A stretch of 64,000 bases of DNA from a virus (IMGVR_UViG_3300030098_006079); one strand, 5' to 3'. Positions 17,847 through 58,983 are shown, counted from the stretch's first letter. Made by a program: numbers and translations. Notes: generated by a model not told the origin, from the sequence alone.

Positions 17847-18725
17847 ATGAAAGGTATAATTCTAGCTGGTGGTACTGGGTCACGAGTTTACCCATCAACT
17901 AAAGTTGTGTCAAAACAACTTCTTCCTGTTTATGATAAGCCTACAATTTATTATCCGCTTTCTACTTTAATAAAACTAGGGATAAAAGATGTAATGATTA
18001 TCACGAACGGTGCAGCATATCCGCATCTACTTTCTTTGTTTAAACAAGAAGACGGAAAGAGTAAGCCATATCTTGGAATTAATTTTACTTTCAAAATTCA
18101 ATCAGCTCCAAAAGGTATTGCAGAGGCTCTTATTATAGCTGAAGAGTGGCAAGGAGATGATGATGTATGTCTAATTCTAGGAGATAATATTTTTACAGGT
18201 ATAGAACCTTTTTATTGGTCAAAAAATTGTGGAGCGCATGTTGTGGGTTATAGAGTATCTAATCCTTGTGACTACGGGGTAATAGAGACAAATGATGTAG
18301 ATGGACGTAAAGCTGTCAAATCTATAGAAGAAAAGCCCATGGATCCAAAAAGTAATATTGCAGCGACTGGAATTTATTTTTATGATAAGACCGCTGGAAA
18401 AAGAGCTAGAAATCTTACACCATCTGCTAGAGGGGAATTAGAAATTACCGACCTAAATAAAAGTTATTTAAGCGATAACTTGTTGTGCTACAGTGAGTTA
18501 GATAGTAACTACGCTTGGTTTGACACTGGAAATCCAGACGATTTATTTGCAGCTTCTATGTATGTAAAGTCTATTCAAGATAGAACTCAAACTATGATTG
18601 GTTGTATAGAAGGAGAATCTTACAAGCAAGGGTTTATTACAGAAGAAGAATTTCTCATAATAAAAGACAAAATGCCTCAGTGTAGTTATAAGACAAATAT
18701 GGTAATGAGTTATTGTTTTGATTAG
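17847..18725 (+). CDS. rmlA: Glucose-1-phosphate thymidylyltransferase
   Basis: GIILAGGTGSRVYP, KQLLPVYDKP, LILGDNIF, EEKP, RGELEITD, WFDTG. Confidence 0.95.
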   Translation: MKGIILAGGTGSRVYPSTKVVSKQLLPVYDKPTIYYPLSTLIKLGIKDVMIITNGAAYPHLLSLFKQEDGKSKPYLGINFTFKIQSAPKGIAEALIIAEEWQGDDDVCLILGDNIFTGIEPFYWSKNCGAHVVGYRVSNPCDYGVIETNDVDGRKAVKSIEEKPMDPKSNIAATGIYFYDKTAGKRARNLTPSARGELEITDLNKSYLSDNLLCYSELDSNYAWFDTGNPDDLFAASMYVKSIQDRTQTMIGCIEGESYKQGFITEEEFLIIKDKMPQCSYKTNMVMSYCFD

Positions 18726-19444
18726 TGATGGAGTTAATTGATTTTGTAATCATCGGACCGTCGAGATCTGGTTCAAGTCTTTTATGCTCTATGTTAGACT
18801 TACACCCTAATATACATTGTCAATTAGAGCATTTCTACAGACCTAAGTATGAGGAATATGTACAGACATATAAAACAGAAGATTCAGTTGAGATATATAA
18901 TCAAATAGCAAAAGAATGGAATAAAACAAAGGAGCTTCCTTCAAACCCTTTAACAGGTTTTAAATTTTTATTCAATAACCATCGACCAGAAACAGAAAGA
19001 CTATACAGAAAACTTTTAAGAAATAATGAAATAAAAAAAATTCTTATCACTAGGAACCCGTTGGAGAGATATATTTCAAATAAGATTGGCGCAGTCGCGA
19101 CAGTGGAGAGTAAAAACTGGTTAGGTACAAAACTACATGGTACAAAAATGAGATTTGATCAAAAGGGATTTCTTAATTTTTTAAAAAAGGATAATTTAGC
19201 TTATGATTATGCATTGAGGACTGTACAAGGACCATTACTTACAATTGACTATACAGACACAACCAACACGACCGCTTTTAAAGATATTTATAATTTTTTA
19301 AATATACCGGATAATCCTACAACACTACTCGATTGGGGAGGATCAACGAAACAAAATTATACACAAATGTCTTATAAGGTGGAGAATTTTACAGAGATGG
19401 TAGAGTATCTCAGAATAACCCCATATAAAAAATGGTTAGTATAA
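18725..19444 (+). CDS. Sulfotransferase (Stf0/Sulfotransfer_3-like)
   Basis: PAPS loop GPSRSGSSLL, HPNI, GFKFL, ITRNPLERYIS. Confidence 0.75.
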   Translation: MMELIDFVIIGPSRSGSSLLCSMLDLHPNIHCQLEHFYRPKYEEYVQTYKTEDSVEIYNQIAKEWNKTKELPSNPLTGFKFLFNNHRPETERLYRKLLRNNEIKKILITRNPLERYISNKIGAVATVESKNWLGTKLHGTKMRFDQKGFLNFLKKDNLAYDYALRTVQGPLLTIDYTDTTNTTAFKDIYNFLNIPDNPTTLLDWGGSTKQNYTQMSYKVENFTEMVEYLRITPYKKWLV

Positions 19445-19460
19445 TTATATAAATAATAAT

Positions 19461-20705
19461 ATGAACCGGAGACAGTTTATAGGGTCGTTAGGTTTAACAT
19501 TTGCGTTACCTCAATTAGAAGTTTTTGGTAGTACTACAACAGATATAAAAAGATTAGCAGTAGTATATGTACCCAATGGTATAAACATGAGCCATTGGAC
19601 ACCGAACGGGTATGGAGATATTATTGATATACCTAATACTCTATCTCCTCTTCAAGATCATTTAAAACAAACTCAGGTCATTTCTGGTCTAACTCATGAT
19701 AAAGCTAGAGCAAATGGCGACGGGGCTGGAGATCACGCAAGAGCAGCTTCTACATTTTTAACAGGTAAGCAGGCTCACAAACACGAATCTAAAATTAGAT
19801 CTGGTAAATCTGTCGACCAACATATTGCAGACAAGTATAACGGAGTTACAAGATTTGATAGTTTGCAGATTACAGGTAGTAAGTCACGTTTAGTAGGTAA
19901 ATGTGATTCTGGTTATAGTTGTGCCTATCAATATAACTTATCTTGGAAGAACGCCCAACAACCAATGGCCGCAATGCATGACCCGCAAGATATTTTTAAT
20001 AGACTCTTTAATGTTAAGACATTAGAACAAAAACAATTAGCGCAGAAAAAATCTATACTTGATTTTGTCTTAGAAGAAAGTAAAACTCTCGAAGGGAAAT
20101 TACCAGCATCAGATAAAGTTAAATTAGACGAATATATGTATGCTGTAAGAGAAGTTGAGAAAGATTTACAAAACAGAGAGCGCTTCAAACTCGATAAAGA
20201 TTTTAACTTTGATTTTGAAATTAACAAAAAATCTGATAAAATAAGATTATTATACAAGTTAATGCATTTGGCATTCTTAAATGATACAACAAGAGTCGCT
20301 ACGTTCTTAACTCAGCATGATGGTTATAATGGTCCTCATAGAGAGATTGGTATAGCAGATGGGCATCATAGTTTATCTCATCACCAAAAAGACCCTAAGA
20401 AACTACATCAACTTGCAATGATAGATTTATATAATGTAAGGTTGTTTTCTGAATTTATTTCTGATCTTAAAAAAGATAACTTGTTAGAGAGCACAGATGT
20501 AATTTATGGTGCTGGTATATCAGATGGTAACAGACACAATCATGACGAGTTACCTGTTTTATTAGTCGGTGGTAAAAATAAAGGCAAACACTTTAGAGTT
20601 GAGAAAGAAAAACCTATGTGTGATTTATTTGTTAGTTTACTACACAAACATAATATAGATGTTCATCACTTTGGAGATTCCACAGGAGAGCTTAACGTAG
20701 TTTAA
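19461..20705 (+). CDS. DUF1552 family protein with Tat signal
   Basis: MNRRQF twin-arginine leader, YVPNG, DGAGDHAR, SVDQHIA, CDSGYSCAYQYNLSW, HHSLSHH, SDGNRHNHDELP. Confidence 0.85.
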   Translation: MNRRQFIGSLGLTFALPQLEVFGSTTTDIKRLAVVYVPNGINMSHWTPNGYGDIIDIPNTLSPLQDHLKQTQVISGLTHDKARANGDGAGDHARAASTFLTGKQAHKHESKIRSGKSVDQHIADKYNGVTRFDSLQITGSKSRLVGKCDSGYSCAYQYNLSWKNAQQPMAAMHDPQDIFNRLFNVKTLEQKQLAQKKSILDFVLEESKTLEGKLPASDKVKLDEYMYAVREVEKDLQNRERFKLDKDFNFDFEINKKSDKIRLLYKLMHLAFLNDTTRVATFLTQHDGYNGPHREIGIADGHHSLSHHQKDPKKLHQLAMIDLYNVRLFSEFISDLKKDNLLESTDVIYGAGISDGNRHNHDELPVLLVGGKNKGKHFRVEKEKPMCDLFVSLLHKHNIDVHHFGDSTGELNVV

Positions 20706-33897: not shown

Positions 33898-34169
33898 ATT
33901 TGAAGTGTATTTTTCTTAAAAAATTTTGTTACGTATTTGCTCTTATAAAGTAATGGATCATGATCTAGAAATAATCTAACTAAATCAAAATTACTCTCTA
34001 ATAATAAGCTATCTTTGAACAAATCTCTATACTTTTTTTTATTAAGAACAATTAAAAATACATTCGCCAAATTAATTTTTTTATTTTCACACATCGAGAC
34101 AAAACTACATAGAGTGAGAAATCTATGTTTTATATCTTTACGGTCTAAAATTGTATATGGATTATCCAT
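33894..34169 (-). CDS. Hypothetical protein
   Basis: 91 aa, coupled to neighbours. Confidence 0.5.
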   Translation of the reverse strand: MDNPYTILDRKDIKHRFLTLCSFVSMCENKKINLANVFLIVLNKKKYRDLFKDSLLLESNFDLVRLFLDHDPLLYKSKYVTKFFKKNTLQI

Positions 34170-35058
34170 TTAAAGGTACAAATTTTTTGCTTAACGCTAA
34201 TACTGTCTCAGTTAATTCTCCACCTGCAGCATATTCATGACCTCCACCGTTACTAATAGTTTTAGCAAATTTGCCTAAATCTAATTCTACATTTGTATTC
34301 TTGCGATAATAAACCCGTTTACCGTTGAGGTTGATCAACATACATACGTCGCGATTAGTTTTATCAATAATATACTGCGCTACATCATTTATATATTCCT
34401 TTGCAAAAGCACTTACGAATTTATATTCTTTACCACCAATTGGTAATGTACATTCAAATAATTGTAACCCTTCTGCAAGTTTTTTAAATTTATAAAAATG
34501 ATAACTTATAATTTTGTTCTGCTCATTTGTAAAGCCATGAAAACCATGCTCAAAATCATTAATAAAATTTTGTAATTTATTACCATTTTTATACCAGAAT
34601 AAAAAGTTAAGTTTGTTGCTTTCAGGAAATTTTAATTCATAACAATCATAATCATTAACAAGAGCGATTAAATGTTTTTGCTCAGTTGTTAAATTACCTA
34701 GCGAACCTAATGTATTATAATATTTGTATATTAGTTTACTGCAGGAGGTTTCATTTACATCAATATAATACTCTGCATTTTTGTAAATTTCTTCTTTATG
34801 AGTCTTATGATGATCAAATATGCATACGTTTTTCTTATCTATTAAATCTTGTATTTCAGTAGTATCTAAGTCAAAGAAGTATACTTGTTTATAATCTTCA
34901 AGCTTGTTATTGTTAAGCCAACCTAAAAACTTCTCTCTCAAATTACTAACTTTAAGAGTAACTACTTTAGGCTTTTTTTGTTTAGCCCAGCAGTATACAA
35001 GATAACTACAACACCCGTCGATATCTAGGTCGGTAAAGATTATTTCATCTTTAGACAT
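34162..35058 (-). CDS. DHH/DHHA1 family phosphoesterase
   Basis: TDLDIDG, FFDLD, IFDHH, GGGHEYAAG. Confidence 0.88.
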   Translation of the reverse strand: MSKDEIIFTDLDIDGCCSYLVYCWAKQKKPKVVTLKVSNLREKFLGWLNNNKLEDYKQVYFFDLDTTEIQDLIDKKNVCIFDHHKTHKEEIYKNAEYYIDVNETSCSKLIYKYYNTLGSLGNLTTEQKHLIALVNDYDCYELKFPESNKLNFLFWYKNGNKLQNFINDFEHGFHGFTNEQNKIISYHFYKFKKLAEGLQLFECTLPIGGKEYKFVSAFAKEYINDVAQYIIDKTNRDVCMLINLNGKRVYYRKNTNVELDLGKFAKTISNGGGHEYAAGGELTETVLALSKKFVPLNG

Positions 35059-35067
35059 TATGATTAT

Positions 35068-36411
35068 TTACACCTCCCTCCCGAAATGTCCCGCTGACGT
35101 TTCTGCAGCCGATACATCTTCGTTAATATTAAGATCATTATTTTCAGATAATGTTAGAGTACTATAATCTATAGCCATTCTATTACTACCGGTATTTGAC
35201 CCAAAACGGTTTTTTATAATACCTATATGTAATGCATCTTCTTCTTCATCTTGCTCATTGCGCCATATACTAACTATTGCGTCAGCAGTAGCACCGAGCC
35301 CATAACTCTCACCTATACTCTCTAAACCAGGAGTAGTTGTATTACCATAACCAGTACGGTTAACCTGAGTAGCAGAAACAACTGGGCATTCAAACGTGTA
35401 CGACATAGCTCTTACTTGCTCAGATATACTTTTTACTCTTTCGTAGGAATTATTACCGTATGTACTCCCCATTAAATTAAGATAATCAAGTACAATTATA
35501 TCTGGTTTGAATCCTTTATTGCCTAACTTTTTAATAAAACCTTCTAATTGAGGTGGTGTAATTGAGTTAGGAGGGAACTCTTTAATTATCATATTAGCCC
35601 TAGGGCTTAACATTTTAAATTTAGTAACCTTTTCTTTTAACGTCTCAACATGGTCTTTTAAATGATTGATCGGTAAATTAGATATTCTTGATGTAATACG
35701 TTTACTATAAATCATCTCTGACATCTCTAAAGATACAACAAGTACATTCTTACCCTGTTCTGCAGCATTAGTTGCTACATTACTTAAAAATATTGATTTA
35801 CCAACATTTGTCGGACCAGCAAAAATATACATTGCACGACCGTTCTCTAAGAAACCACCATCCAATCGCTCATCTAACCATTTCCAACCAGTACGTATTT
35901 TTGTTTCCTTCGTAGTGATATCTTCAATATGCTTGTCGAGATCTTTAAAATAATCATGACCTACATTTGTGGTAATAGAGATATTGCAAGCTTTAGTAAA
36001 CTTATCGTGTATTACAGATACATCTCTTTCTTTACTATCAACAATGTCTAAAAATGTATTAAAGACTGCTTGTTCTTGCAAAAACTTTTCTGTGTATTTG
36101 TATAATACATCTTCATTAAAATCTATTTCTATTTCCGCAATAGACTTTTTGCATTTCAAATAATGATCTTTTAATTGATCAGTATTTAAATATAATTCTA
36201 ATTCCGTCTTTGATGGTCGTTGTTTATTCTTTTTATATAAAGCTTGAATTATTTTTATAATTTGTTTTATATCATTATTTTTAAAGAATTTATAATTTAA
36301 ACTATCTATGATAGAATTTAAATATATTTCATCTTCAAGCAGCTGCTTAAAAACAATTTTCTCTAAAAATTCAAGATCAACGTCGAGGTAGTTACTTTCG
36401 CTTGTTAGCAT
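35068..36411 (-). CDS. gp41: Replicative helicase gp41 (DnaB-like)
   Basis: GPTNVGKS, SLEMSE, IKEFP, LDYLNL, SATQVNR, KNRFG. Confidence 0.95.
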   Translation of the reverse strand: MLTSESNYLDVDLEFLEKIVFKQLLEDEIYLNSIIDSLNYKFFKNNDIKQIIKIIQALYKKNKQRPSKTELELYLNTDQLKDHYLKCKKSIAEIEIDFNEDVLYKYTEKFLQEQAVFNTFLDIVDSKERDVSVIHDKFTKACNISITTNVGHDYFKDLDKHIEDITTKETKIRTGWKWLDERLDGGFLENGRAMYIFAGPTNVGKSIFLSNVATNAAEQGKNVLVVSLEMSEMIYSKRITSRISNLPINHLKDHVETLKEKVTKFKMLSPRANMIIKEFPPNSITPPQLEGFIKKLGNKGFKPDIIVLDYLNLMGSTYGNNSYERVKSISEQVRAMSYTFECPVVSATQVNRTGYGNTTTPGLESIGESYGLGATADAIVSIWRNEQDEEEDALHIGIIKNRFGSNTGSNRMAIDYSTLTLSENNDLNINEDVSAAETSAGHFGREV

Positions 36412-37096
36412 GTTTTACGAGAGTATTATAGAAGTACTCTTCTGATTTTCTATAGTCGTCAGTTATTTCGGTTAGGCCAGGTGATTCATGTATAACATGA
36501 ATAGGGGCTGTTGTTAGTTTTAAACCAGCAAGATGACAATCCAAACAAAATTTAATATCGTAGCAATGAAAACCTTTTAACTGCTCATCAAAACGTACGT
36601 CATGTAAAGCAATAGATTTAGTTCTTACCGCTAAAAATAAACCGTCTAGTAAAATTACATCTTTTGGAACATCACCAAATATAGTATATGCATAATCAGT
36701 TTTATTATAATAATGGGATACTACACCTGATAAAGTTTCTGGTTTACATAATAAATGCCATAAACATGGTTTTTTTATTTGTAGTTTACTACCACCAGCT
36801 AAACCTACTACATCATATCCATTTTTAAAAAAATTACGGATAGTCTGTAAGAAGTTAATACTATCAATTGTTATATCATCATGCACAAATAATATACAAT
36901 CATATTCTTTTAAATTCTCTTTTGTCAGATATTTGTTATACGTTGCGCATAATGGAGAGGTATTGTTATAAGTAGGTTGCAACGTATATGATACATTGGT
37001 TTGCTTTGACTTATGATTCTTTAGGCTATTAGCTAAACGAGAATTTTTAAATTCTTGTTCATTAAGCTTAGTAGCTGTTGCTATTAAAGTTTTCAT
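36392..37096 (-). CDS. GT-A fold glycosyltransferase (Glyco_tranf_2_5-like)
   Basis: ILFVHDD, VVGLAG, LLDGLFLAV, FDE..GFHCYD, HES. Confidence 0.75.
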   Translation of the reverse strand: MKTLIATATKLNEQEFKNSRLANSLKNHKSKQTNVSYTLQPTYNNTSPLCATYNKYLTKENLKEYDCILFVHDDITIDSINFLQTIRNFFKNGYDVVGLAGGSKLQIKKPCLWHLLCKPETLSGVVSHYYNKTDYAYTIFGDVPKDVILLDGLFLAVRTKSIALHDVRFDEQLKGFHCYDIKFCLDCHLAGLKLTTAPIHVIHESPGLTEITDDYRKSEEYFYNTLVKHANKRK

Positions 37097-37731
37097 AAAA
37101 AGAACGGTACGGAATTGAGCTTAAATTTACTTACTTCTTTAAATCTATTTGAAGTAAAGTTATATTCTAACACAGCCCCTTCGTCTATATATTTATATTC
37201 AGGCATAGCCGCAGACGTAAAGTTTCCGTCATTATAATGTAATGTACTGCCAGATCTAAATATACGTAAACTACCAGTTTTACTATTATAATACCAGCAG
37301 CCATATATACCTTCTAACATTTCTAGAGCTTGGGTAAATCCAACCTTTTCCATAAGAGGTAAAATGATACTACTATCTACGTCATTATAGTTTTCTAGTT
37401 TCATCTTATCAACTAAATCTCTATCATTTTCTAGTACACCATTGTGCGCTAAATAACGACCATTCATAGTAAATGGATGAGAAGTAGATAATTTAAAGTC
37501 TCTTTCCTTTGATGTAGGAGACTGTACGTGACCGAGATAATAAATACAAAACGGATTCTCGGTAATAGGTTTTGTAAAGTCTAATTCGTGTGTTGTTTTT
37601 ACTAAAGTATTACTTTGTAATCCTTGCGGGAATAGATACGTTACACTACGTACAAAATTACCCCTCTCTGTATTTTTTTCACAGAGTTTTCTAAATGTCT
37701 CTATATTATTTGATCCAAAAATTCCACACAT
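37093..37731 (-). CDS. Class II (Ntn) glutamine amidotransferase, QueC-associated
   Basis: N-terminal MCGIFG, GHVQSPT, HPF, AHNG, DVDS. Confidence 0.85.
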   Translation of the reverse strand: MCGIFGSNNIETFRKLCEKNTERGNFVRSVTYLFPQGLQSNTLVKTTHELDFTKPITENPFCIYYLGHVQSPTSKERDFKLSTSHPFTMNGRYLAHNGVLENDRDLVDKMKLENYNDVDSSIILPLMEKVGFTQALEMLEGIYGCWYYNSKTGSLRIFRSGSTLHYNDGNFTSAAMPEYKYIDEGAVLEYNFTSNRFKEVSKFKLNSVPFFL

Positions 37732-37746
37732 AATTTTATATTTTAT

Positions 37747-38442
37747 TTAAACTACTTTCCAAGGTATATCATCTCGCTCATACTCTATTGGGTCAACGAG
37801 ACCATTTTGTAAGAACCCTTGTATACGAGAACTACATGCTGTACAATAACCGCATGCCTTTTCTCTTCCCTCATAACAAGTCCAAGTATCCTCAAATTTT
37901 ACATTATTGACTACACCAGTTTTAATAATTTCTTGCTTTGATAACTTAATTAAAGGTGCTTCTATTTTAATTTTTGTTTTTCTATTCAAAGCAGTTACAT
38001 TATTAATCTCTGTAAGAAACTCTTTACTACCGTCCCAATAACCTGCTTGACTATCTACAAGCGCCGATCCATGATATACAGTCTCTGCTCCTACAGCTTC
38101 TGCATATGCTGATGCAATTGATAACAACATCATATTGCGGAACGGAACATAATTTACTGTTTGTGCATCTCCTAATACATCTCGCGCATGCGCTACTTTA
38201 ATATTATTATTTGTTAATGCAGATGTTGTTGCAAGATCTTTAAAGAAGGTAAGATCAATAATCTTATGCTCTTCAATATTATCATAATTATCAGTTTGCA
38301 TACCAGCATATAACATTTCTTTTATATGCTTTTGACCGTAATCGAAAGTTATTGCATAAATGTCGTCATGAACACTTGCTGCTAAACTTAAAATTACTGA
38401 ACTATCTAAACCACCTGAAATAGGTACTACTGCTTTACTCAT
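37747..38442 (-). CDS. queC: 7-cyano-7-deazaguanine synthase
   Basis: SGGLDS, FDYGQKH, YVPFRN, TWTCY...CGYCTAC. Confidence 0.95.
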   Translation of the reverse strand: MSKAVVPISGGLDSSVILSLAASVHDDIYAITFDYGQKHIKEMLYAGMQTDNYDNIEEHKIIDLTFFKDLATTSALTNNNIKVAHARDVLGDAQTVNYVPFRNMMLLSIASAYAEAVGAETVYHGSALVDSQAGYWDGSKEFLTEINNVTALNRKTKIKIEAPLIKLSKQEIIKTGVVNNVKFEDTWTCYEGREKACGYCTACSSRIQGFLQNGLVDPIEYERDDIPWKVV

Positions 38443-39523
38443 CGTCTTGTTCTAATATAGCTAATTCATCGAGTGACTTACCATAACGGTACTTTTCACT
38501 TATAGAAGATTCTAATTTAGGCAGCACATTACTCCACGTTTCTTCGTCATTGCGCCAATTTTTGTAATAACCTAATTTTTTCTCTCCCATACTATACGTC
38601 GAACCATTTTGTTGTATAATACCATGAGATACTGCAATATCTTTTAGACCAGAATATTTTTCTAGACCAGTCTTAAAATTAAGATATGCTTCTCCTTGCA
38701 AGAAAGCAGGTATAAATCTATTTTTTACTGTGAGCATTCGAAGAGTAACGCCAGAATAGTTACGACTTTCAGTTAATGCCTCGTCGTTTGTATTACCAGC
38801 ATCAGTTTTCTCTTTCTTAGCTGCCATTTGTACTAGTATAGACGCCATGTATACAGGCCCAGACCCACCAGCTTGTTGCTTAACTAAGGTAGGATGGAGT
38901 GCACCAGGGTCAGCGTACGTATGATTACTTGCAATTACAGTTGTACCAGTAACAGCTGCTTTATAAGTAATAATACGCATCATGGATTTAAGCTGCTTGG
39001 CTCTAAGCCCCATATCCATGGCGCCTTTATTAGCACCAGCATCGTTTATTTCCTTCTCCGACGCTAAATTACCGAGAGAGTCAATAGAAATAATGAACTT
39101 ACCATGTAGTTCGGGTTCTTTTTCTACTTCATCTAAGAACGCCATGATCTGGTTACGACAACTTTCTACTGTATCTACTGGAACATATTTTACATTAGAC
39201 GTATCAAGACCGACATTCTCAGCTCCCTCGTTTTCTACTGCTACCTCTGTATCAAAGATAACAGGTACCATGCCTTTGCGTTGAGCATGAGCTAAAATTT
39301 TATTTAAAATAAAGGTTTTACCACAACCAGAATCTCCTGCAAAAATAGTAATTCTACCTTTAGGTACTCCACCGTATAAGGAACCAGAAAGAATAGAATT
39401 TAACACTAAACAACCAGTATCAATCCATTCGGTTACATTACTGAGAGTATTTTTTTCTAAAGTAGTAGCGTTACTATTTAGTTTTTGCAGTTTAGCAAAT
39501 GCTTTATCAACGAGATTAGACAT
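38435..39523 (-). CDS. uvsX: RecA-like recombinase UvsX
   Basis: DTGCLVLN, AGDSGCGKT, FDTE, IDSLG, NHTY, GGSG. Confidence 0.93.
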   Translation of the reverse strand: MSNLVDKAFAKLQKLNSNATTLEKNTLSNVTEWIDTGCLVLNSILSGSLYGGVPKGRITIFAGDSGCGKTFILNKILAHAQRKGMVPVIFDTEVAVENEGAENVGLDTSNVKYVPVDTVESCRNQIMAFLDEVEKEPELHGKFIISIDSLGNLASEKEINDAGANKGAMDMGLRAKQLKSMMRIITYKAAVTGTTVIASNHTYADPGALHPTLVKQQAGGSGPVYMASILVQMAAKKEKTDAGNTNDEALTESRNYSGVTLRMLTVKNRFIPAFLQGEAYLNFKTGLEKYSGLKDIAVSHGIIQQNGSTYSMGEKKLGYYKNWRNDEETWSNVLPKLESSISEKYRYGKSLDELAILEQDDE

Positions 39524-39888: not shown

Positions 39889-42546
39889 TTAATTTGCAAC
39901 TTCTATTTTAAAGAAATCAAATAAGTCTACGTTTACTGCTTCTCCTGGTCGAAAAGACTTCCATTTTACAGAGTCATAAAATCTATCAATCACACTATAT
40001 ACAATTTTTTCAAACATTTTTTCATAATCAATTTTGAAGTCTTTGTTAAACTCCTCAGGAAGGTCGTATTTAAAACCAAGGCTAGCTATACCAAACTTAT
40101 TCGGTGTAATTGTATAAAAGTATCTTATTTTGTCACCTGAGCCAATATACTCATTATTGTTAGCTATACCATAATGATCAAGTAATTTGTTATAATAAAT
40201 AGAAGATTTAACGTGTATAGGGGTTCCCTTTTTAACCTTCCAACCCTCAGAATCTATACTATATTTTTCGTAGTCCTTAACACCCATAACGAATGCAATA
40301 TCTTTTATAGGTAATGATTTGAATATATCATATGTCTCTTCAAACAGCTCGTTCGTTGAAGATTGGTTTTCTGACATAATCATATGTTCAATAATTTTCT
40401 TCACATAAGGTTTAATTGCGTTAGGCATAGTAGTTCTAACAACTTCTACTCCTGTATATTTGAACTTTTTGCATACTACACCTTCATCATCGAGTTTGTG
40501 TAATACGTATCTTTTCTTTTGTAAAAAGATACCCTTATCACATATCGACTCTCTTTTAAAGACAAATCTCGGATCTTTTGTAAGAAGAGTATCCCGTGCC
40601 CACTTTTCAATATTAACGTTTAAGTCGTCTTCTATATCTTGCACTAAATCATATACCTCCTGATTAATCTTATTGTTATTATGGAGCTCAATACCCATAT
40701 GTTTTAATAAAGGAGTTATAGTGCAGTATGAACTATCAGTATCGTTATAGATGATCGGGTCTTGTTTATCTAAATCTCTATCAGTTAACCCGGTTTTATT
40801 TTTTATATAATTACGCAAAATTACATTACTTTGCTTAATAACATCCCGGCCTGTAAGAGTTATTGATCGCGCAATATCTCCATCTCCCATTTGAGATATT
40901 TTATTTCCAAAGTAACCGTAAATACGATTGATTAAAATTTTCAGAGTAAATTGCCATATCCAAAGTTGATCAATTTTATACTTTGTTAATTTCATTTCCT
41001 CTTTTATCTTCTCTTGCGCGATAGGGTCAGTCTCTTTTTCTAAAGCAAGGGTTAATTGATGTAAATTCTCTCTTTCTACATTCCATTCCTCTTTCTTACC
41101 TCTTCTTATATCGTAGAAATGATCGGTTATTCTTGGAAATATACCTTTCGTTTTTTGTGAGAATAATTTTTTTGCTCGTGTTATTGCAATTTCATTTACA
41201 TCGCACCACTTACGAAAATCCTTATAGGTCATTTCTATATGCTTGTCATTAACAGTCTTGACATAAACTTTATCTTTATCTGTACCTATAATACTACCAA
41301 CTTTAGTTTCTGGGCTCAAGTTAAGAGTAACCATCACACTCGGGTATAGAGAGTTTGCATCAAAAGAAATTATGTTTTTTTGGAAACCTCTTTGAGGCTC
41401 TCCAACATATGCACCTTCGTATTTTTCTGTACGGTCATCCCCTTTAATAAAAGTAGGTATAACTCTAGGAGGATCTTGCTTTCGTGCTTCAACTATTGCT
41501 CGACCGTTAACAGTACTAATAGTACCTAGAGCAGCGTTAAATGGTGTTAAACCAACATATGAAAGCATACGAGCTAACTTCATGTACATTAGTTTCTCAT
41601 CAAGACGGACTAATAGTCTTACATCATGAATATTGTAATCAACAAATTTGTCCCAATTTTCTAATGATAGAGTAGCAAGATTAGTTTCTCCAATATCTAC
41701 CTTTTTCTCTCCTAATTCTATATGAGCTATATTATCAAGTTTATAACTATCTCTCATACCCATACTAAATGTTTTGTATACATCGAGATAATCTAACATT
41801 GATACACCTTCAACTACATATTTCGTAGCCTGCTTACCAAAATTACCTCGGTATATTCTCTGATAAATAGGCTTCATTATTTCATCATGTACAGGAGAAA
41901 AAAGCCGTGTCGCATCTTCTCCTAAAATATTTCTCACACGATTAATAACATACGGAATATCAAACAACTCACTATTCCATCCTGATAATATATCAGGACG
42001 ATCATTACAGTAATGATCTAAGAACTTTTGTAGTAGTTCGGTTTCATTTCTGCAATGATAGTAAATAACATCATCTGTTTTTGGAGTGTATGGTTGTATG
42101 CCCCAAGTATAATATGTTTCCTTCTCTGTGTCATATATAGTGATTACATTAATCATATGACTAGCTTCTTCAGGTTTAGGAAACTCGTCTGGGGAGTAGG
42201 TCTCAATATCAAAGAACCATATTTTAAGAGGAAATTTGCTAAAGTCTGTATCCTCATTAACCTGCCAAAACCTATCTACAAGGAATTGTTGGTATGGGGA
42301 AATGTTCTCATATATCTTTTGTTCGTTGAGGTCTTCTATCTTTTTTCTACGATCTAACTCACTTGTACCAATTACTTTACGTAGTTTAGTACCATACAAA
42401 GAAACCGCGTCATATCGTTTAGAAACGGTTTCATAATAGAAATAAGGTTGATATGGAACATCAGTTTCGATCCGTACTCCATCGTCATCCCAAGTGTAGA
42501 GCCGCATCACGCGTTGATTAGGTATGTAAGCAAGATTCCTATACAC
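39889..42546 (-). CDS. gp43: Family B DNA polymerase gp43
   Basis: FDIET, SGWNSELFD, YKLD, SFDANSLYPS, KILINRIYG, YNDTDS, KKRY; GTG start. Confidence 0.97.
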   Translation of the reverse strand: MYRNLAYIPNQRVMRLYTWDDDGVRIETDVPYQPYFYYETVSKRYDAVSLYGTKLRKVIGTSELDRRKKIEDLNEQKIYENISPYQQFLVDRFWQVNEDTDFSKFPLKIWFFDIETYSPDEFPKPEEASHMINVITIYDTEKETYYTWGIQPYTPKTDDVIYYHCRNETELLQKFLDHYCNDRPDILSGWNSELFDIPYVINRVRNILGEDATRLFSPVHDEIMKPIYQRIYRGNFGKQATKYVVEGVSMLDYLDVYKTFSMGMRDSYKLDNIAHIELGEKKVDIGETNLATLSLENWDKFVDYNIHDVRLLVRLDEKLMYMKLARMLSYVGLTPFNAALGTISTVNGRAIVEARKQDPPRVIPTFIKGDDRTEKYEGAYVGEPQRGFQKNIISFDANSLYPSVMVTLNLSPETKVGSIIGTDKDKVYVKTVNDKHIEMTYKDFRKWCDVNEIAITRAKKLFSQKTKGIFPRITDHFYDIRRGKKEEWNVERENLHQLTLALEKETDPIAQEKIKEEMKLTKYKIDQLWIWQFTLKILINRIYGYFGNKISQMGDGDIARSITLTGRDVIKQSNVILRNYIKNKTGLTDRDLDKQDPIIYNDTDSSYCTITPLLKHMGIELHNNNKINQEVYDLVQDIEDDLNVNIEKWARDTLLTKDPRFVFKRESICDKGIFLQKKRYVLHKLDDEGVVCKKFKYTGVEVVRTTMPNAIKPYVKKIIEHMIMSENQSSTNELFEETYDIFKSLPIKDIAFVMGVKDYEKYSIDSEGWKVKKGTPIHVKSSIYYNKLLDHYGIANNNEYIGSGDKIRYFYTITPNKFGIASLGFKYDLPEEFNKDFKIDYEKMFEKIVYSVIDRFYDSVKWKSFRPGEAVNVDLFDFFKIEVAN

Positions 42547-42553
42547 AGAAGAA

Positions 42554-42582
42554 AGTATAGGGTATTTTCATGAATTAATCAA
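42554..42582 (-). promoter_or_regulatory. Sigma70-like promoter of gp43 (TTGATT-N17-TATACT)
   Basis: 7 nt upstream of the GTG start. Confidence 0.55.
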
Positions 42583-43826
42583 CTAATACCATTTTGGAGA
42601 TTTAATAATTTGCGCTCTGGAGCGGCATATGAGTATGAATAAAGCTCTTTGTAATAATCAATATTATCTTCCATCCATCTTTTATTCATATACTCTCGAG
42701 CTCTTTTACATTCTTTGACATATTTTTTATGGTCTTGAGTTAGGTATTTTATTTTATCGATCAAGTCATCTCCAGTTTTAAATTTATGAAAAGCATTCTT
42801 ATAAGTTTCCTGATCCTGACAAATAGACGGGATACCATAAGCACATGCCTCAATAAATTTTAAATCACTTTTTGCGTTATTAAAATTGCTATCCTCAAGA
42901 GGAGCGTAAAATAATGTTGCGTTTAAAGTACTAACAAATCGAGGGTAATCTACTAAAGTAGACCATTCATGAAATTCAATCTTGCCAGCTTTAATTAAAT
43001 CTCTCAATGATAGTGGAAACCCACCAACAAACACCCATTGTATGTCGTCGACAGATTTACGGATTGCATCAATAACATGATAGAAATCATCTTTTTGTTT
43101 TATTCTGTTTTCTATATCAAAATGTGCACCACTACCACAATAAACCACTCGCGGCTTTCTTTTATTTTTTTGATAATTTTCTTTTATTTCATTTAAATTA
43201 TAGTATCGGTCCATCCAAAAACGTGGAATAAAATTAGGTATAACTGTTATGTGTTTATTACCAGTTTTCTCCGTGTAGTATTGTTTCATGAAATTATTTG
43301 TTACTGTGATCTCATCACACAGCTGCATAATTTCCATACTAGTTCTTCTTATCTCTGGGTCTTCAAACGCAAATCTAAATTTATTGTAATGAGGGATATC
43401 CTCTTTGAATATTAAATCGTCAATTTCATATATTATATTAAAACCAAATTCTTTTTTTACCTCAGATAACCATTGTATATATTTTAACTGTTGATCTGTA
43501 GCTTGTCTTTGTATCCTGACTGTTTTTAAACCTTTATAAAAGTTTTTATCTCCAATCATTACAGTACCGCCTTGTACATTTGCTTTACCATAACAATTCA
43601 ACAATAGTTCTGGCCAAATCATTCTCCAATGACCACACCCAGAATAGTCAGCGTAGAAATTTACACCGCGAGGTAGATCTGGAGTTTCATGACCCGTCTT
43701 TTTTAATGTATCTTTATAATTTAACCTGTTTATGTTATGTAAAGCATTTCCTGGGGTTGTAGGAGTAGGTATTACTGGTGAAGTAAACGGTAATCTTTGC
43801 GTTGTGTTATTAAACGGAGTAAGCAT
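42579..43826 (-). CDS. Glycosyltransferase (GT-B-like)
   Basis: ADYSGCGHWRMIWP, IYEIDD, ITVT, VIPN, APLEDSNFNNAKSDLKFIE. Confidence 0.8.
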   Translation of the reverse strand: MLTPFNNTTQRLPFTSPVIPTPTTPGNALHNINRLNYKDTLKKTGHETPDLPRGVNFYADYSGCGHWRMIWPELLLNCYGKANVQGGTVMIGDKNFYKGLKTVRIQRQATDQQLKYIQWLSEVKKEFGFNIIYEIDDLIFKEDIPHYNKFRFAFEDPEIRRTSMEIMQLCDEITVTNNFMKQYYTEKTGNKHITVIPNFIPRFWMDRYYNLNEIKENYQKNKRKPRVVYCGSGAHFDIENRIKQKDDFYHVIDAIRKSVDDIQWVFVGGFPLSLRDLIKAGKIEFHEWSTLVDYPRFVSTLNATLFYAPLEDSNFNNAKSDLKFIEACAYGIPSICQDQETYKNAFHKFKTGDDLIDKIKYLTQDHKKYVKECKRAREYMNKRWMEDNIDYYKELYSYSYAAPERKLLNLQNGIS

Positions 43827-50666: not shown

Positions 50667-51794
50667 ATGAGTAGGTTCACTTCCAGAATAGATGAAATGA
50701 TAGGCAAAAAGCCTAAAGATAATAATCAGGCTGATATTGACCGTATTGAGAAGGAAGTAGATGACGGCTTAACTAACGATCCTGTTAAAAAACGGATTGC
50801 TCAAAAAGCAAAGCAAAAAAGACAAGACCTTTTAAAATCTTTAGATGAAGCCGAAGGAGATGAATTTGTCCCACGTCAAGGACCTGAAACAGGTGGTGAA
50901 TTCAAACCAAAATCTAAAGATGATTTAGCCCAAGAACCGGCTGAAGAGCCAACACCCGATCCAATGACTACGGAAGGTGAAACATTTTACGTTAATCTTG
51001 CTCGTAAAGCACTATTCGTAGATTTAGACAATGTGAGCCTTACTGATACAGAGAGAGAAACAGTTACACGTGACGTTGAACCTAATAACGCAAAGGAAGT
51101 CGCTAAAATTCTTCGTAAAATTGTTGTTGATTATGGTTTAAGTGAAAATTTTGATTCTAAAATTAATAATGTATGGGAAGACTTGGAGTTAAAAGATTTA
51201 CGTAGTAAACTTTCTTTAGAGTTAAAAAAAAACGATAAAGTAGTTGTATTAGTACCGGGTAGTTTTAAACCTCCTCATAAAGGCCATTACGAAATGGTAA
51301 AAACATATAGTCAGATGTATCCATCTGGTCATGTACATGTTTTAATTTCAGCTCCTTCAGCTAAAAGTGAACGAAGAACTAAAGATGGTAAATTAATAAC
51401 TCCCGCTGCTGCAAAGCAAATATTTGAGCTTTATGTTCAGCCGTTAAATAATGTTACAGTTAGTATTTCAGAATATCCATCACCAGTTACTGCTGCGTAT
51501 GAGACACTTAAAACTCTCGATGATGGTACAACTGCTGTATTAGGAGCTAGTAGAAAAGATGGAGATTGGAAAAGATGGTCATACGCACAACCGTGGGCTG
51601 AAAAAGAAGGTTTAGATATTGAGATTGTTGAACCAGAAGAGTCTGCAGTAGACGTAACTCTAAAAGCAGATGGTACACCTTACAGTGCGAGTAATATTCG
51701 AGATAATTTTGACGATTTCGAAAAAATAAAGGCTGACATACCGGAGCATGTCAGCCCTGAGGCTGTTAAACAAGTATTTGATTCTTTATCTTAA
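50667..51794 (+). CDS. HIGH-family nucleotidyltransferase with acidic N-terminal extension
   Basis: PGSFKPPHKGH, YSASNIR; residues about 1-180 charged/unrelated. Confidence 0.75.
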   Translation: MSRFTSRIDEMIGKKPKDNNQADIDRIEKEVDDGLTNDPVKKRIAQKAKQKRQDLLKSLDEAEGDEFVPRQGPETGGEFKPKSKDDLAQEPAEEPTPDPMTTEGETFYVNLARKALFVDLDNVSLTDTERETVTRDVEPNNAKEVAKILRKIVVDYGLSENFDSKINNVWEDLELKDLRSKLSLELKKNDKVVVLVPGSFKPPHKGHYEMVKTYSQMYPSGHVHVLISAPSAKSERRTKDGKLITPAAAKQIFELYVQPLNNVTVSISEYPSPVTAAYETLKTLDDGTTAVLGASRKDGDWKRWSYAQPWAEKEGLDIEIVEPEESAVDVTLKADGTPYSASNIRDNFDDFEKIKADIPEHVSPEAVKQVFDSLS

Positions 51795-52421
51795 GTCTCT
51801 TATAAAGTCGTAAAACTCTTGTCTTGTTAAATCTGTTTTATCTAAAAACGCACCAGACATTCTTGCCGTCTTCATAATACTATCATGCTTTACTCCTCGA
51901 AGACCAGCACAAGTATGATTAGCTGATACTAAAACAGCAACACCTTTATTATCTTTACATACTTCATTCATATAGTTATGAATTTGCATAGTTAGATTTT
52001 CCTGGACTTGAGGTCTTCTAGAAAACCATTCAACAATTCGGTTAATTTTACTTAAACCAATCACCTTACCATCTTTACCAGGAATATATGACACATGAGC
52101 TTGACCAATAAAAGGTAAATGATGATGGGAACAAAAAGAATTAACTTTAATGTTACCTTGAAATACTAACCCGTCATATTTATCAACATTATCAAATGCT
52201 GTGATCTTAGGGGGTAAGCTATAACAACCCTCTGCTAAATCATTCACAAAAGCTTTTGCTACTCTTCGAGGAGTATCAGCACTATTAGGATCATTTCGCC
52301 AATCAAACCCTAAAGCATCCATATACTTCTCATACGCAGCTGCAGCTTTTTCAATTATCGCCTCTTTTTCATCTTCTGTTCGGGGTAAGTTACCGTTTGC
52401 ATATTGCAGTAATTCACTCAT
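51786..52421 (-). CDS. folE: GTP cyclohydrolase I
   Basis: TPRRVAK, CSHHHLPF, GLSKINR, RRPQVQE, HTCAGLRG. Confidence 0.96.
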   Translation of the reverse strand: MSELLQYANGNLPRTEDEKEAIIEKAAAAYEKYMDALGFDWRNDPNSADTPRRVAKAFVNDLAEGCYSLPPKITAFDNVDKYDGLVFQGNIKVNSFCSHHHLPFIGQAHVSYIPGKDGKVIGLSKINRIVEWFSRRPQVQENLTMQIHNYMNEVCKDNKGVAVLVSANHTCAGLRGVKHDSIMKTARMSGAFLDKTDLTRQEFYDFIRDLR

Positions 52422-52492: not shown

Positions 52493-52984
52493 ATGTTTAG
52501 TAGTACTAAGATAATTGAACTTGGGAGTTGTGCATTTCGGCAACCTCAAGCAACATCGCATTGTCGGTTCGTGCACGGATATCGTTTGATTGGTAAGTTT
52601 TGGTTTGGTGCTAATGAATTAGATGAAAATAATTGGGTTGTGGATTTTGGAGGTCTTAAGGACCTTAAGAAGAAATTAGAAGATCATTTTGATCATACAA
52701 CTGTTATTGCTGATAATGATCCTGCTTTAGATTCTTTTCGAAAACTTCATGAGGAGGGTATTGTAGATTTACGTATCATGCAAGGAGGAGTCGGTATTGA
52801 GAAGTTTGCTGAGTTTTGCTTTAAAACTGCTGATAAGTATGTAAAGGAATTGACAAATAGGCGTTGTTTTGCGAGTCGTGTAGAGGTATTCGAGCATGAG
52901 AAAAACTCTGCTATTTATGAGGATAAATATAATATAATGTCTTGGGCTAACGAGCAAAACGCAAAAATAAATAGAGGACACTAA
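52493..52984 (+). CDS. queD: 6-carboxytetrahydropterin synthase
   Basis: AFRQ...HCRFVHGY, VVDFGGLK, FDH, EHEKNSA. Confidence 0.9.
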   Translation: MFSSTKIIELGSCAFRQPQATSHCRFVHGYRLIGKFWFGANELDENNWVVDFGGLKDLKKKLEDHFDHTTVIADNDPALDSFRKLHEEGIVDLRIMQGGVGIEKFAEFCFKTADKYVKELTNRRCFASRVEVFEHEKNSAIYEDKYNIMSWANEQNAKINRGH

Positions 52985-52985
52985 T

Positions 52986-53120
52986 ATGGGTAAAGGTAGT
53001 AAACGCCGAAAGGAAGATACTAGCAAAATCACGGACAACTGGGATAATATTGATTGGGGTAAACCTAAGAAAAAAGAGGTTAAACCAGAGACTAGAGATA
53101 TTAAAGATATATTTAAATGA
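52986..53120 (+). CDS. 44-aa basic peptide MGKGSKRRKEDTSKITDNWDNIDWGKPK...
   Basis: Below track cutoff. Fills the queD-queE gap exactly; ATGA overlap with queE. Confidence 0.65.
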   Translation: MGKGSKRRKEDTSKITDNWDNIDWGKPKKKEVKPETRDIKDIFK

Positions 53121-53884
53121 CAGATATAGATAACTACAAACAAGATCTTAGTGAGCAAAGAATATTTTTATCTGACGATAAAGTGTTCTATACAGTAGAG
53201 GGAGAAGGTGAATATGTAGGGTGGCCCTCTGTTTTTATGAGATTGTCAATGTGTAATCTTACATGTCAGGGGTTCGCCTCAGAAGATTCTCCTCATGGGT
53301 GTGATAGTTATGTATCATGGAGTATAAAAAATAAACTTACGTTTGAGGAATTAAAAACTCTTTTAGAAGAAGATGGTTATAAAGACAATATGGACAATGG
53401 CGCTATATGGAAAATTACTGGAGGAGAACCGTTAGTCCAACAATCAAGATTACTTAAGTTTGTATCATATGTAGATATAGAATGGGGGTATGTACCTAGA
53501 ATAGACTTTGAAACTAATGCTACTATTCAACCTAATGAAGAATGGTTAAGGCATGGCGCTACATTTACTACTTCTCCTAAGCTTAGTAATAATGGAGATC
53601 CGGTAGAGCGAAGATATAAACCTGAGGTGCTTAAATGGCATGTCAGTAATGGGTCTGGTTTTAAGTTTGTTATTAGTAAGAAAGAAGATTTAGATGAGGT
53701 ATTAGAAAAGTATGTTAATGAATTTAATATACCTAGAGATAGAGTATGGTTAATGCCTTGTGCTGGTAGCAGAGCAGAACATATTGAAATCGCCGAAGAA
53801 ATAGCAGAGTTTGCAAAGCAACAATACTTTAAATTTAGTCCTCGTCTACATTTACTAGTATGGGACATGGCATTAAAGGTATGA
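53117..53884 (+). CDS. queE: 7-carboxy-7-deazaguanine synthase (radical SAM)
   Basis: FYTVEGEG, CNLTC..CDS, ITGGEP, ETN, SPKL, FKFV, SPRLH. Confidence 0.93.
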   Translation: MTDIDNYKQDLSEQRIFLSDDKVFYTVEGEGEYVGWPSVFMRLSMCNLTCQGFASEDSPHGCDSYVSWSIKNKLTFEELKTLLEEDGYKDNMDNGAIWKITGGEPLVQQSRLLKFVSYVDIEWGYVPRIDFETNATIQPNEEWLRHGATFTTSPKLSNNGDPVERRYKPEVLKWHVSNGSGFKFVISKKEDLDEVLEKYVNEFNIPRDRVWLMPCAGSRAEHIEIAEEIAEFAKQQYFKFSPRLHLLVWDMALKV

Positions 53885-54300
53885 AGATAGTAGCTACCAA
53901 CGGTTGCTTCGATATTATACATGCTGGTCACGTTCAGTTTTTAAATGAAGCGAAACAACTAGGTGATAAATTAATTGTAGGTTTGAACTCTGATAAGAGC
54001 GTTAAAAAGCTTAAAGGAGATAGTAGACCTTATAATACCGAACAAAATCGAGCAGAGGTTCTTCTCGCATTAGAGAGTGTTGATCAAGTTATTATATTTG
54101 ATAGTATAGATTGTCGTGGTTTCTTAAAAGGAGTGCGACCCGATATATATGTAAAGGGTGGAGATTATACAATTGACACTTTACCAGAGTGTGAAAAGGA
54201 AACTATATTTAGTGTTTGTAAAGAGATAAAAATCCTCAAAAAATATGATAGCTTATCTACCTCTCAGATTATTGAAAAATTACAATTAACGGATAAATAG
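53881..54300 (+). CDS. HldE/RfaE domain II-like nucleotidyltransferase (heptose-1-P adenylyltransferase family)
   Basis: TNGCFDIIHAGH, GLNSD.SV..LKG..RP, KGGDY, ST; start re-called at MKIVAT (ATG 53881). Confidence 0.85.
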   Translation: MKIVATNGCFDIIHAGHVQFLNEAKQLGDKLIVGLNSDKSVKKLKGDSRPYNTEQNRAEVLLALESVDQVIIFDSIDCRGFLKGVRPDIYVKGGDYTIDTLPECEKETIFSVCKEIKILKKYDSLSTSQIIEKLQLTDK

Positions 54301-54304
54301 AAAT

Positions 54305-55045
54305 ATGAGGATTGCAATCAGCGGTACTGCTTGTCAAGGTAAGACTACTTTAATTAAAGATTTCCTTGAACAATGGCCAGATTATAATACTCCCGAAAAG
54401 ACATATCGGGATATAATTAAAGAAAATAATTTAGATCACTCATCAAACACTAATAAAAAAACTCAATGGGATATCCTTAACTTTCAAATCGAGGAACTCA
54501 ATAAGTACAGACGAGATGATAAAGTAATTTTCGATAGATGTCCATTGGACAATCTTGTGTATAGTATTTGGGCTGCTGAGCAAGAAAATAATGACATTGA
54601 TGAATCGTTTATTACTGAGTGTATACCACTTGTAAGAGAAAGTTTTCGAAATTTAGATATTATATTTTTTACTCCTGTTACTAAGGTAGCTCCTGTTCCA
54701 GTTGAAGAAGATGGAATGCGTGATACAAAAATAATTGGTGAGATAGATAATTTATTTAAAGCAATTCATAGGGATCATGAACAAAACCCAAAAACTACAT
54801 TTTTTGTTTCCGACGACAAACCTGCTATTATTGAAGTTTTTGGTAGTCGTAGAGAGCGAATCGAGATTATTAAATTATATCTTGATGGTGAGGGAGATTA
54901 TGTAGAACCGGGTAATATTATTGATGAAGAAACTCTCGAAGAGTTTGAAAAGCTTAAAGAAGTATGGAAAGATGCCGATCCAGAAGAACATTCTTATGTA
55001 AAAAAAGAACTAGAGCGACAAAATCAGCGCAAGTTTAATAAATAA
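54305..55045 (+). CDS. P-loop nucleoside/nucleotide kinase (AAA_28/NadR-type)
   Basis: ISGTACQGKTT, FDRCPLD. Confidence 0.7.
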   Translation: MRIAISGTACQGKTTLIKDFLEQWPDYNTPEKTYRDIIKENNLDHSSNTNKKTQWDILNFQIEELNKYRRDDKVIFDRCPLDNLVYSIWAAEQENNDIDESFITECIPLVRESFRNLDIIFFTPVTKVAPVPVEEDGMRDTKIIGEIDNLFKAIHRDHEQNPKTTFFVSDDKPAIIEVFGSRRERIEIIKLYLDGEGDYVEPGNIIDEETLEEFEKLKEVWKDADPEEHSYVKKELERQNQRKFNK

Positions 55046-56060: not shown

Positions 56061-56855
56061 GTGAATAAGGTTAAAATTGTATCTGGTTGGTCAAATAGAG
56101 GTGGTTCGACCACTGCATTTATTAATTTAACTAACGCATTAAATAAAAGCAACATTGATTGTACATTCTACGGACCGCATACGTGGCATTTAGAAAAATG
56201 TAAATCTGGTTTATTAAAAAATTGCGCAGTTAGTAGTTGTGATAATTTAATTGTTCATTTTCTATCACCACCGAGCAGACCTGCCGCGGCTCGGGTTATT
56301 TTAGCTTGTCATGAAAAAAATCTATTTGAAGTTTCCAAAATAAAACCATTTTGGGATGAAGTTGTCTTTATTAACAAAAAACAACAACAATACCATAGTA
56401 AGTATACAGGTAAATACAATATTATACCTAACTTAACAGAAGAACTTAAAGCTAACCCAAAACCTAATGATAATATAGTTGGTATTATTGGTTCGATTGA
56501 TGAAAATAAGCAAACACATGTTTCTATTGAAAGAGCTATAAAAGATAATAGCTCAAAAGTATATTTGTTCGGTACTATTAATGATCCTAACTATTATAAT
56601 AATTATGTCAAGCCATTATTATCAGATAAAGTAATACATTATGGTTATTTGGAAAATAAACAACAAATGTATGATATGATTGATAAAGTCTATCTTTCTT
56701 CCCTGAGTGAGTGTGCTTCTTTAGTAAAAGATGAATGTAGAACTACTAATACAGCGTTTTGCGGTAATTCTGCAGTAGAAAACGATTCAGAGACGTTAAC
56801 TAATGATATTATTCTTGAGCGGTGGAAAAAAATATTAAATTATAACTGTCAATGA
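56061..56855 (+). CDS. Glycosyltransferase (GT-B-like)
   Basis: GGST, GIIGSI..NKQTH, SECASLV; GTG start. Confidence 0.65.
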   Translation: MNKVKIVSGWSNRGGSTTAFINLTNALNKSNIDCTFYGPHTWHLEKCKSGLLKNCAVSSCDNLIVHFLSPPSRPAAARVILACHEKNLFEVSKIKPFWDEVVFINKKQQQYHSKYTGKYNIIPNLTEELKANPKPNDNIVGIIGSIDENKQTHVSIERAIKDNSSKVYLFGTINDPNYYNNYVKPLLSDKVIHYGYLENKQQMYDMIDKVYLSSLSECASLVKDECRTTNTAFCGNSAVENDSETLTNDIILERWKKILNYNCQ

Positions 56856-58981: not shown

Positions 58982-58983
58982 GA

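Follow-up and report, generated by a model that had tools for sequence, protein, structure and literature searches.

Phages place 7-deazaguanines in their DNA with different sets of genes and to different extents. In Flavobacterium phage immuto_2-6A, formyl-dPreQ1 (fdPreQ1) replaces 100% of G (PMC10516641). A fused Gat-QueC protein yields dG+ in Enterobacteria phage 9g (PMC6884629), while Vibrio phage 6E35.1a (Schizotequatrovirus relatives) contains dPreQ1 at 15% of G, with insertion of the base credited to a DpdA (PMC12028318). Outside phages, HuiG of huimycin biosynthesis glycosylates a derivative of 7-cyano-7-deazaguanine (preQ0) with UDP-GlcNAc as donor (PMC7439116), and the 6-deoxyhexose of dapiramicin is derived from an Rml-type route (bioRxiv 10.64898/2026.04.15.718813). 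Here, we analyze 64,000 nucleotides of the virus IMGVR_UViG_3300030098_006079 (this whole stretch is referred to as the window), in which the genes for QueC, a free-standing class II glutamine amidotransferase (Gat) and a GT-A glycosyltransferase (GT) form a block within a replication operon. QueC and Gat appear to be components of a DpdA3 deazaguanine system of an already described kind, and the GT is a conserved, unproven candidate for a tailoring enzyme. We tentatively read the block as part of a DpdA3-type system in which the GT would be dedicated to the tailoring of the deazaguanine.

Orthologues of the block in related viruses

The genes run in the order uvsX-queC-Gat-GT-gp41, as the initial annotation had proposed and as the minus-strand open reading frames (ORFs) and their Pfam matches bear out (Table 1). 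The overlaps it had listed are likewise recovered from the ORF coordinates: 8 nt between uvsX and QueC (38435-38442), 4 nt between Gat and GT in the form of ATGA (37093-37096), and 20 nt between GT and gp41 (36392-36411). QueC and Gat are two ORFs set 15 nt apart, not the single fused ORF of a Gat-QueC archaeosine synthase, and no terminator-like sites were found on the minus strand within the block and up to gp32. Through the ATGA overlap, Gat and GT are predicted to be translationally coupled. The source phage appears to be a very divergent T4-like virus, since its gp41 is only ~31% identical to cyanophage gp41 and a DNA search with the block against deposited phages returned no match.

In one genome, a GT beside QueC and Gat is unremarkable because the window is rich in GT and sugar genes: at least 6 of its ~87 ORFs are GT-like, and the probability that some GT lies next to a chosen pair of genes in one genome is roughly 0.15-0.2. 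Relatives of this GT are encoded on at least 586 IMG/VR stretches, and ~110 distinct viral loci with a GT orthologue (35-100% identity) were examined, which show four gene orders. Type A (GT identity 35-100%) has the arrangement uvsX-QueC-Gat-GT-gp41, in many loci with a GMP reductase gene between QueC and Gat. Type B (36-43%) combines QueD-QueE-AAA_28 with ThyX-QueC-Gat, two small ORFs, GT and DUF366, and type D (37-44%) is arranged as QueC-GT-Gat-DUF366. In type C (about 45%) the GT stands by itself, with RmlA-like, PfkB and galactosyltransferase-like genes around it and an AAA_28-QueF pair at a distance of 4.7 kb. In 71 of 79 distinct loci the GT is preceded by Gat at a distance of no more than 800 nt, and in 44 of 51 QueC lies at most 3 kb from the GT; both counts cover loci with enough upstream sequence and predate the addition of type D and further type A loci.

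The uvsX-gp41 slot houses the cassette in most lineages. In type B, no gene separates uvsX from gp41, and the cassette is found 31 kb away beside QueD/QueE. Across types A, B and D and at two genomic sites, the distance from the GT to QueC and Gat does not exceed about 1 kb. The queC-gat-GT synteny suggested at the outset is therefore present in three of the four gene orders and breaks down in type C, where the GT is 41 kb off. That an orthologous GT is kept with Gat and QueC over different gene orders exceeds chance, and a cassette that moves as a unit, reshuffled inside yet together, is a classic signature of functional coupling.

Several further features of these loci were recorded. The small ORFs (77-87 aa) that adjoin the GT in several lineages have no detectable homology to each other. 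A 262-aa ORF upstream of the type C GT was considered as DpdA3 and rejected, and it matches no Pfam family either. Modification genes appear to accumulate preferentially in the uvsX-gp41 slot, whose content in one type C contig (G004) is listed in Table 1.

The DpdA3-type pathway and the part of QueC and Gat

A search with the Pfam TGT model gave no match in the relatives G001 and G002, but the model also misses the published DpdA3 of phages CP220 and phiST, so that a negative search with this model cannot show DpdA to be lacking. DpdA3 was searched with phiST CGPG_00065 (named in PMC10516641) and then with the G001 protein. G001 is a complete relative of 200,819 bp with terminal repeats, and encodes a 272-aa DpdA3 homologue that is 46% identical to the immuto_2-6A DpdA and 41% identical to that of CP220. 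Its gene opens an operon that continues with a Formyl_trans_N protein (DpdN-like), a 116-aa ORF, an AAA_28 kinase and a bimodular QueF, collinear with the DpdA-DpdN-kinase-QueF genes of immuto (DpdA3 46%, DpdN 40%, kinase 31% and QueF 43% identity). DpdA3 was found in G001, G008-G011, G014, G016, G019 and G020 (35-100% mutual identity, 41-46% to CP220/immuto), and co-occurs with the GT in every testable long contig of types A, B and D. QueF and DpdN are present in type A and B contigs, and QueF in two type C fragments; the type D contigs, of which one is 61% complete, yielded DpdA3 but no QueF. Since the operon of the relatives is collinear with that of the fdPreQ1 phage immuto_2-6A, the expected base is predicted to be preQ1-derived rather than archaeosine (G+).

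Gat, GT and DUF366 form a correlated add-on to the immuto-like DpdA3 system: immuto, CP220, phiST and 9g have no member of the GT family, the first three also have no DUF366, and a search for Gat in Flavobacterium and Campylobacter phages gave no match. DUF366 (PF04017, otherwise archaeal) is present in G001, G010 and G008. Its gene follows the GT in type B and Gat in type D, and is located elsewhere in type A genomes, so that it looks like a member of the deazaguanine gene set.

The window itself holds the complete preQ0 route, with FolE, QueD, QueE and QueC all encoded in it, and it is strongly supported that the four enzymes together make preQ0. The group of folE, queD and queE had correctly been placed at a distance from the block, which measures 13.3 kb from QueC rather than the ~14 kb first given. 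QueC matches PF06508 over residues 3-213 of its 231 (194 bits against a cut-off of 22), and both the PP-loop SGGxDS (S9, G10, G11, D13, S14) and the C-terminal Zn cysteines C189, C197, C200 and C203 are invariant in 18 orthologues. Gat, with 37 bits for GATase_6 against a cut-off of 27, begins with MCGIFG and shows the class II features, i.e., a catalytic Cys right after the initiator Met and an Asn-Gly oxyanion site; its residues C2, R23-G24, H96-N97-G98 and D119 are invariant in 18 orthologues. There is thus strong support, from these residues, for Gat as an intact glutaminase that goes with QueC.

Gat homologues also adjoin QueC in Vibrio phages, among them a full-length homologue (26% identity) in 6E35.1a, where QueF is present too. 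Most likely, Gat feeds ammonia to QueC and makes the synthesis of preQ0 glutamine-dependent, and is not an archaeosine synthase; the preQ1 chemistry of QueF and DpdN, the dPreQ1 of 6E35.1a and the persistence of Gat with QueC in type C argue for such an ammonia donor.

A GMP reductase/IMPDH-family gene lies between QueC and Gat in G001, and a GMP reductase gene has this position in 21 of the 58 loci that show both genes, the window not being one of them; other lineages have a more distant GuaC-like gene (31-33% identity) there. The reductase could serve to recycle guanine that DpdA3 displaces, or to restore balance in the purine pool. In the window, QueE is directly followed by a cytidylyltransferase-like gene and an AAA_28 kinase gene; this kinase is 29% identical to the one in the immuto_2-6A DpdA3-DpdN-QueF operon. 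In types A, B and C, too, AAA_28 genes adjoin QueE or QueF, which may hint at a step at the nucleotide level.

The glycosyltransferase and its possible acceptors

The GT matches PF13712 with 59 bits (cut-off 27), and its AlphaFold2 model has a predicted local distance difference test (pLDDT) score of 94. The best solved fold match is majastridin (2qgi/2nxv), a UDP-binding GT-A protein (template modelling score, TM, 0.71), followed by generic GT-A enzymes, and a BFVD fold search added only one uncultured-phage homologue. All 43 homologues compared retain H72-D73-D74 (HDD, a DXD-type motif), D151, D180 and H203. The GT is predicted to be an active transferase of nucleoside diphosphate (NDP)-sugars. 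Neither a fold link nor a hydroxymethylated-pyrimidine pathway connects it to DNA base glycosyltransferases of the T4 alpha-/beta-glucosyltransferase type: no DNA glucosyltransferase was found among its top 50 PDB fold matches, and no scanned ORF of the window matched the dCMP/dUMP hydroxymethylase family. A complex prediction for QueC, Gat and GT scored 0.01, which is evidence neither way.

In the mechanism that we tentatively propose, the block would represent the part encoded here of a DpdA3-type system through which a 7-deazaguanine takes the place of guanine in the phage DNA. FolE, QueD, QueE and QueC would supply preQ0, with Gat handing ammonia to QueC, and the GT would act as a dedicated tailoring enzyme that transfers a sugar from the NDP-sugars of the phage onto the deazaguanine, which is the uncertain step. 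The sugar could be added to the free base before its insertion by DpdA3, or to the base already in the DNA. DUF366 would be a further partner, and the end product a base beyond fdPreQ1.

Several observations argue for a pathway role of the GT. It belongs to a cassette that behaves as a unit, is coupled to Gat through ATGA and co-occurs with DpdA3. Sugar-tailoring genes recur beside deazaguanine genes, as seen from the carbamoyltransferase and the NDP-sugar epimerase/dehydratase in the type C slot; the GT is positioned apart from the glycan island of the window, and huimycin provides a precedent. Lastly, its catalytic motifs are invariant and the phage makes NDP-sugars. A sugar-bearing 7-deazaguanine in phage DNA is on these grounds a serious, if unproven, possibility. 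It is possible, but rather doubtful, that a large clade of such phages has added Gat, a GT-A enzyme and DUF366 to the immuto-type DpdA3 pathway, so that a sugar-bearing 7-deazaguanine replaces guanine.

A number of observations weigh against this mechanism. fdPreQ1 is without an obvious hydroxyl acceptor for a sugar. Searches of the 64-kb window for DpdA3, QueF and DpdN found none of them, and their presence in the source phage is taken from the relatives. The arrangement classes and independent rearrangements are few, so that the loci do not count as independent. In the type C contig, QueC and Gat are kept between uvsX and gp41 and the GT is in a sugar-gene neighbourhood. The net charge of the GT orthologues ranges from -11 to +7 with no hint of a conserved DNA-binding surface. 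Isoelectric points, taken as a proxy for DNA binding, cover a wide range and do not decide the matter. The closest homologues of the GT in cellular genomes (29-38% identity) are located in flagellin/protein glycosylation islands: no Que gene lies within 8 kb at any of 80 bacterial loci, flagellar genes accompany 17 of them, and the neighbours are enriched in GT41/TPR proteins, methyltransferases, DegT and hexapeptide transferases. Finally, the many other GT and sugar genes of the window make glycan or virion glycosylation a ready alternative.

Much of this fits a GT that has nothing to do with DNA and is one of many glycan-building enzymes of the phage, with a protein of the virion or host, or else a surface glycan, as its target, lying beside Gat only through cassette ancestry and shared early/middle expression. 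QueC and Gat alone would then serve the deazaguanine pathway, with fdPreQ1 as the product as in immuto_2-6A, and indeed an immuto-type operon suffices for a complete known modification. The flagellin-type company of the cellular homologues, with none linked to Que genes, the separation of the type C GT from QueC-Gat, the often acidic orthologues, and the other GT-like genes and full deoxy-/amino-sugar supply of the window all favour this explanation, which is credible enough to be taken seriously while we rather doubt it. However, the orthologues remain close to QueC and Gat in three gene orders, and the GT of the window is set apart from the glycan island at 56-64 kb. Moreover, a search, not an exhaustive one, for viral loci that carry the GT but lack Que genes returned none among the ~110, and tblastn with the GT and one bacterial homologue against 50,697 deposited phage records, glycan-rich T4-like cyanophages included, gave no match. 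The phage GT clade is a separate branch that is tied to QueC and Gat.

Improbable, in our view, is a GT that acts on a small molecule of the pathway which never enters DNA, such as displaced guanine or a surplus deazaguanine base or nucleoside, for sequestration or for pulling the DpdA3 exchange forward alongside GMP reductase. The reductase gene between QueC and Gat points to purine-pool handling, kinases flank the Que genes, an acidic and compact GT fits such an acceptor, and free preQ0 derivatives are glycosylated in huimycin biosynthesis, but this activity has neither direct evidence nor a known phage precedent, and it would be compatible with the tailoring of DNA if the glycosylated base then entered DNA.

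More improbable still is that QueC and Gat are a split Gat-QueC that converts preQ0 into archaeosine, whose amidine the GT would glycosylate: the dG+ made by the fused protein of 9g (PMC6884629), the intact class II glutaminase adjoining QueC and the type D contigs without a detected QueF speak for it, but Gat shows no more than marginal similarity to the 9g Gat domain (E 6e-4 to 7e-7), the type A and B relatives carry QueF and a DpdN-like formyltransferase that use preQ0 and preQ1, and 6E35.1a, with QueC, a Gat homologue and QueF, contains dPreQ1. The archaeosine link drawn in the initial annotation thus gives way to a predicted preQ1 chemistry, and of the acceptors named there the deazaguanine gains partial support from the conservation of the GT with QueC and Gat, whereas the amidine is a weak idea. 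Dedicated tailoring of a deazaguanine by the GT is the reading that we tentatively retain.

The source phage devotes many genes to sugar chemistry. That it encodes its own NDP-sugar supply, as had been supposed, is confirmed by RmlA, a dehydratase, an RmlD-like protein and DegT, and other sugar genes of the window encode GT2, GT11 and GT-B-like proteins. A second candidate glycosyltransferase gene among the replication genes, GT-B-like, lies between gp46 (SbcC-like) and the gp43 polymerase, and the relatives L017 and L021 have a gene of similar size in the gp46-gp43 position. The position of the DHH/DHHA1 gene next to gp41 is kept in all type A and type C relatives looked at.

Table 1. Features of the window and, in the last rows, of related contigs (contig names precede the coordinates).
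Feature	Position	Strand	Match or remark
RmlA	17847	+	NDP-sugar supply
RmlA, sulfotransferase, DUF1552 gene	17847-20705	+	near tail sheath
Dehydratase	28773		NDP-sugar supply
RmlD-like	29774		NDP-sugar supply
DHH/DHHA1 phosphoesterase	34162-35058	-	between gp41 and gp32
gp41-type DnaB helicase	35068-36411	-	DnaB_C PF03796 3e-29; downstream flank of cassette
GT, GT-A glycosyltransferase, 234 aa	36392-37096	-	Glyco_tranf_2_5 PF13712 7e-16
Gat, free-standing class II (Ntn) glutamine amidotransferase, 212 aa	37093-37731	-	GATase_6 3e-9
QueC, 7-cyano-7-deazaguanine synthase	37747-38442	-	PF06508 2e-57
UvsX/RecA recombinase	38435-39523	-	PF00154 4e-16; upstream flank of cassette
polB (gp43 polymerase)	39889-42546	-	112-aa ORF between polB and uvsX
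GT-B-like gene	42579-43826	-	weak Glyco_trans_1 matches
FolE, GTP cyclohydrolase I	51786-52421	-	PF01227 9e-47; first step to preQ0
QueD, CPH4 synthase	52493-52984	+	PF01242 2e-16
QueE, CDG synthase, radical SAM	53117-53884	+	phrog_2076 QueE-like 4e-45
Cytidylyltransferase-like gene and AAA_28 kinase	53860-55045	+	directly 3' of QueE
AAA_28 P-loop kinase	54305-55045	+	PF13521 2e-12; near QueE, possible pathway member
Glycan island	56061-63858	+	epimerase fragment, GT2, GT11 fucosyltransferase-like, DegT, RmlD+GT2 fusion, DUF5672, DUF3431
DegT	58984	+	NDP-sugar supply
GMP reductase/IMPDH-family gene (G001)	L008:8408-9364		PF00478 8e-61
DUF366	L023:8703-9284
DUF366	L150:1501-2070
DUF366	L250:9440-10006
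uvsX-gp41 slot, type C (G004)	L236:3975-9977		NodU/CmcH-type carbamoyltransferase, QueC, weak methyltransferase-like ORF, Gat, 199-aa ORF, NDP-sugar epimerase/dehydratase

Comparison with described systems

To our knowledge, the sugar-bearing bases of DNA are all pyrimidines (glucosyl-5-hydroxymethylcytosine, arabinosyl-5-hydroxymethylcytosine and base J), and the eight deazaguanines that we know of in DNA all have small side chains. The initial annotation knew of no glycosylated deazaguanine in phage DNA; a search of the available literature for one in DNA likewise found none, and searches on DpdA3 and on PF13712/majastridin turned up nothing pertinent other than the papers cited. A GT that tailors the deazaguanine would therefore create the first glycosylated purine analogue in any DNA and a new class of DNA hypermodification. 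It would be found in abundant aquatic phages, i.e., uncultured marine and freshwater T4-like phages, with a bearing on the evasion of restriction and CRISPR, on sequencing bias in viromes and on enzyme tools. Even if the GT is unrelated to DNA, the free-standing glutaminase is a regular partner of QueC, Gat, GT and DUF366 come together as an addition to DpdA3 systems, and the immuto-type pathway is widespread in uncultured T4-like phages.

Among nucleic acids, galactosyl- and mannosyl-queuosine of animal tRNA are the only glycosylated 7-deazaguanines known to us. There the sugar is on the cyclopentenediol of queuosine; they differ from the base considered here in being part of RNA, not DNA, and QueA and QueG/H were not seen in the window. 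Majastridin and the bacterial Glyco_tranf_2_5 genes share Pfam family and fold with the GT, whereas the neighbours of the bacterial genes include flagellin, GT41/TPR, methyltransferase and DegT genes but in no case Que genes. The T4 alpha- and beta-glucosyltransferases, which have a GT-B fold and act on 5-hydroxymethylcytosine, are comparable in being encoded among replication genes and in decorating a modified base after replication, but the GT of the window has a GT-A fold. Compared by pathway description only, huimycin and dapiramicin resemble the proposed pathway in joining a preQ0 pathway to a glycosyltransferase that acts on a 7-deazapurine base; they are actinomycete secondary metabolites made without a nucleic-acid insertion enzyme.

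The phage systems are closer. In 9g, as in the Gat-QueC of Crenarchaeota, a class II glutamine amidotransferase is combined with QueC in a deazaguanine pathway, but the two are fused there and separate genes here, and 9g uses DpdA1 and has no such GT. Vibrio phage 6E35.1a shares a QueC with an adjoining free-standing Gat homologue, plus QueF, and differs in its partial replacement and in having no GT homologue; its base insertion is credited to a DpdA, and the clade described here carries DpdA3. In immuto_2-6A there is no free-standing Gat, Glyco_tranf_2_5 GT or DUF366, whereas QueC of the window sits in the replication operon with Gat and GT. The relatives of the window nevertheless share with immuto_2-6A the order DpdA3-DpdN-kinase-QueF, and both are large T4-like aquatic myoviruses.

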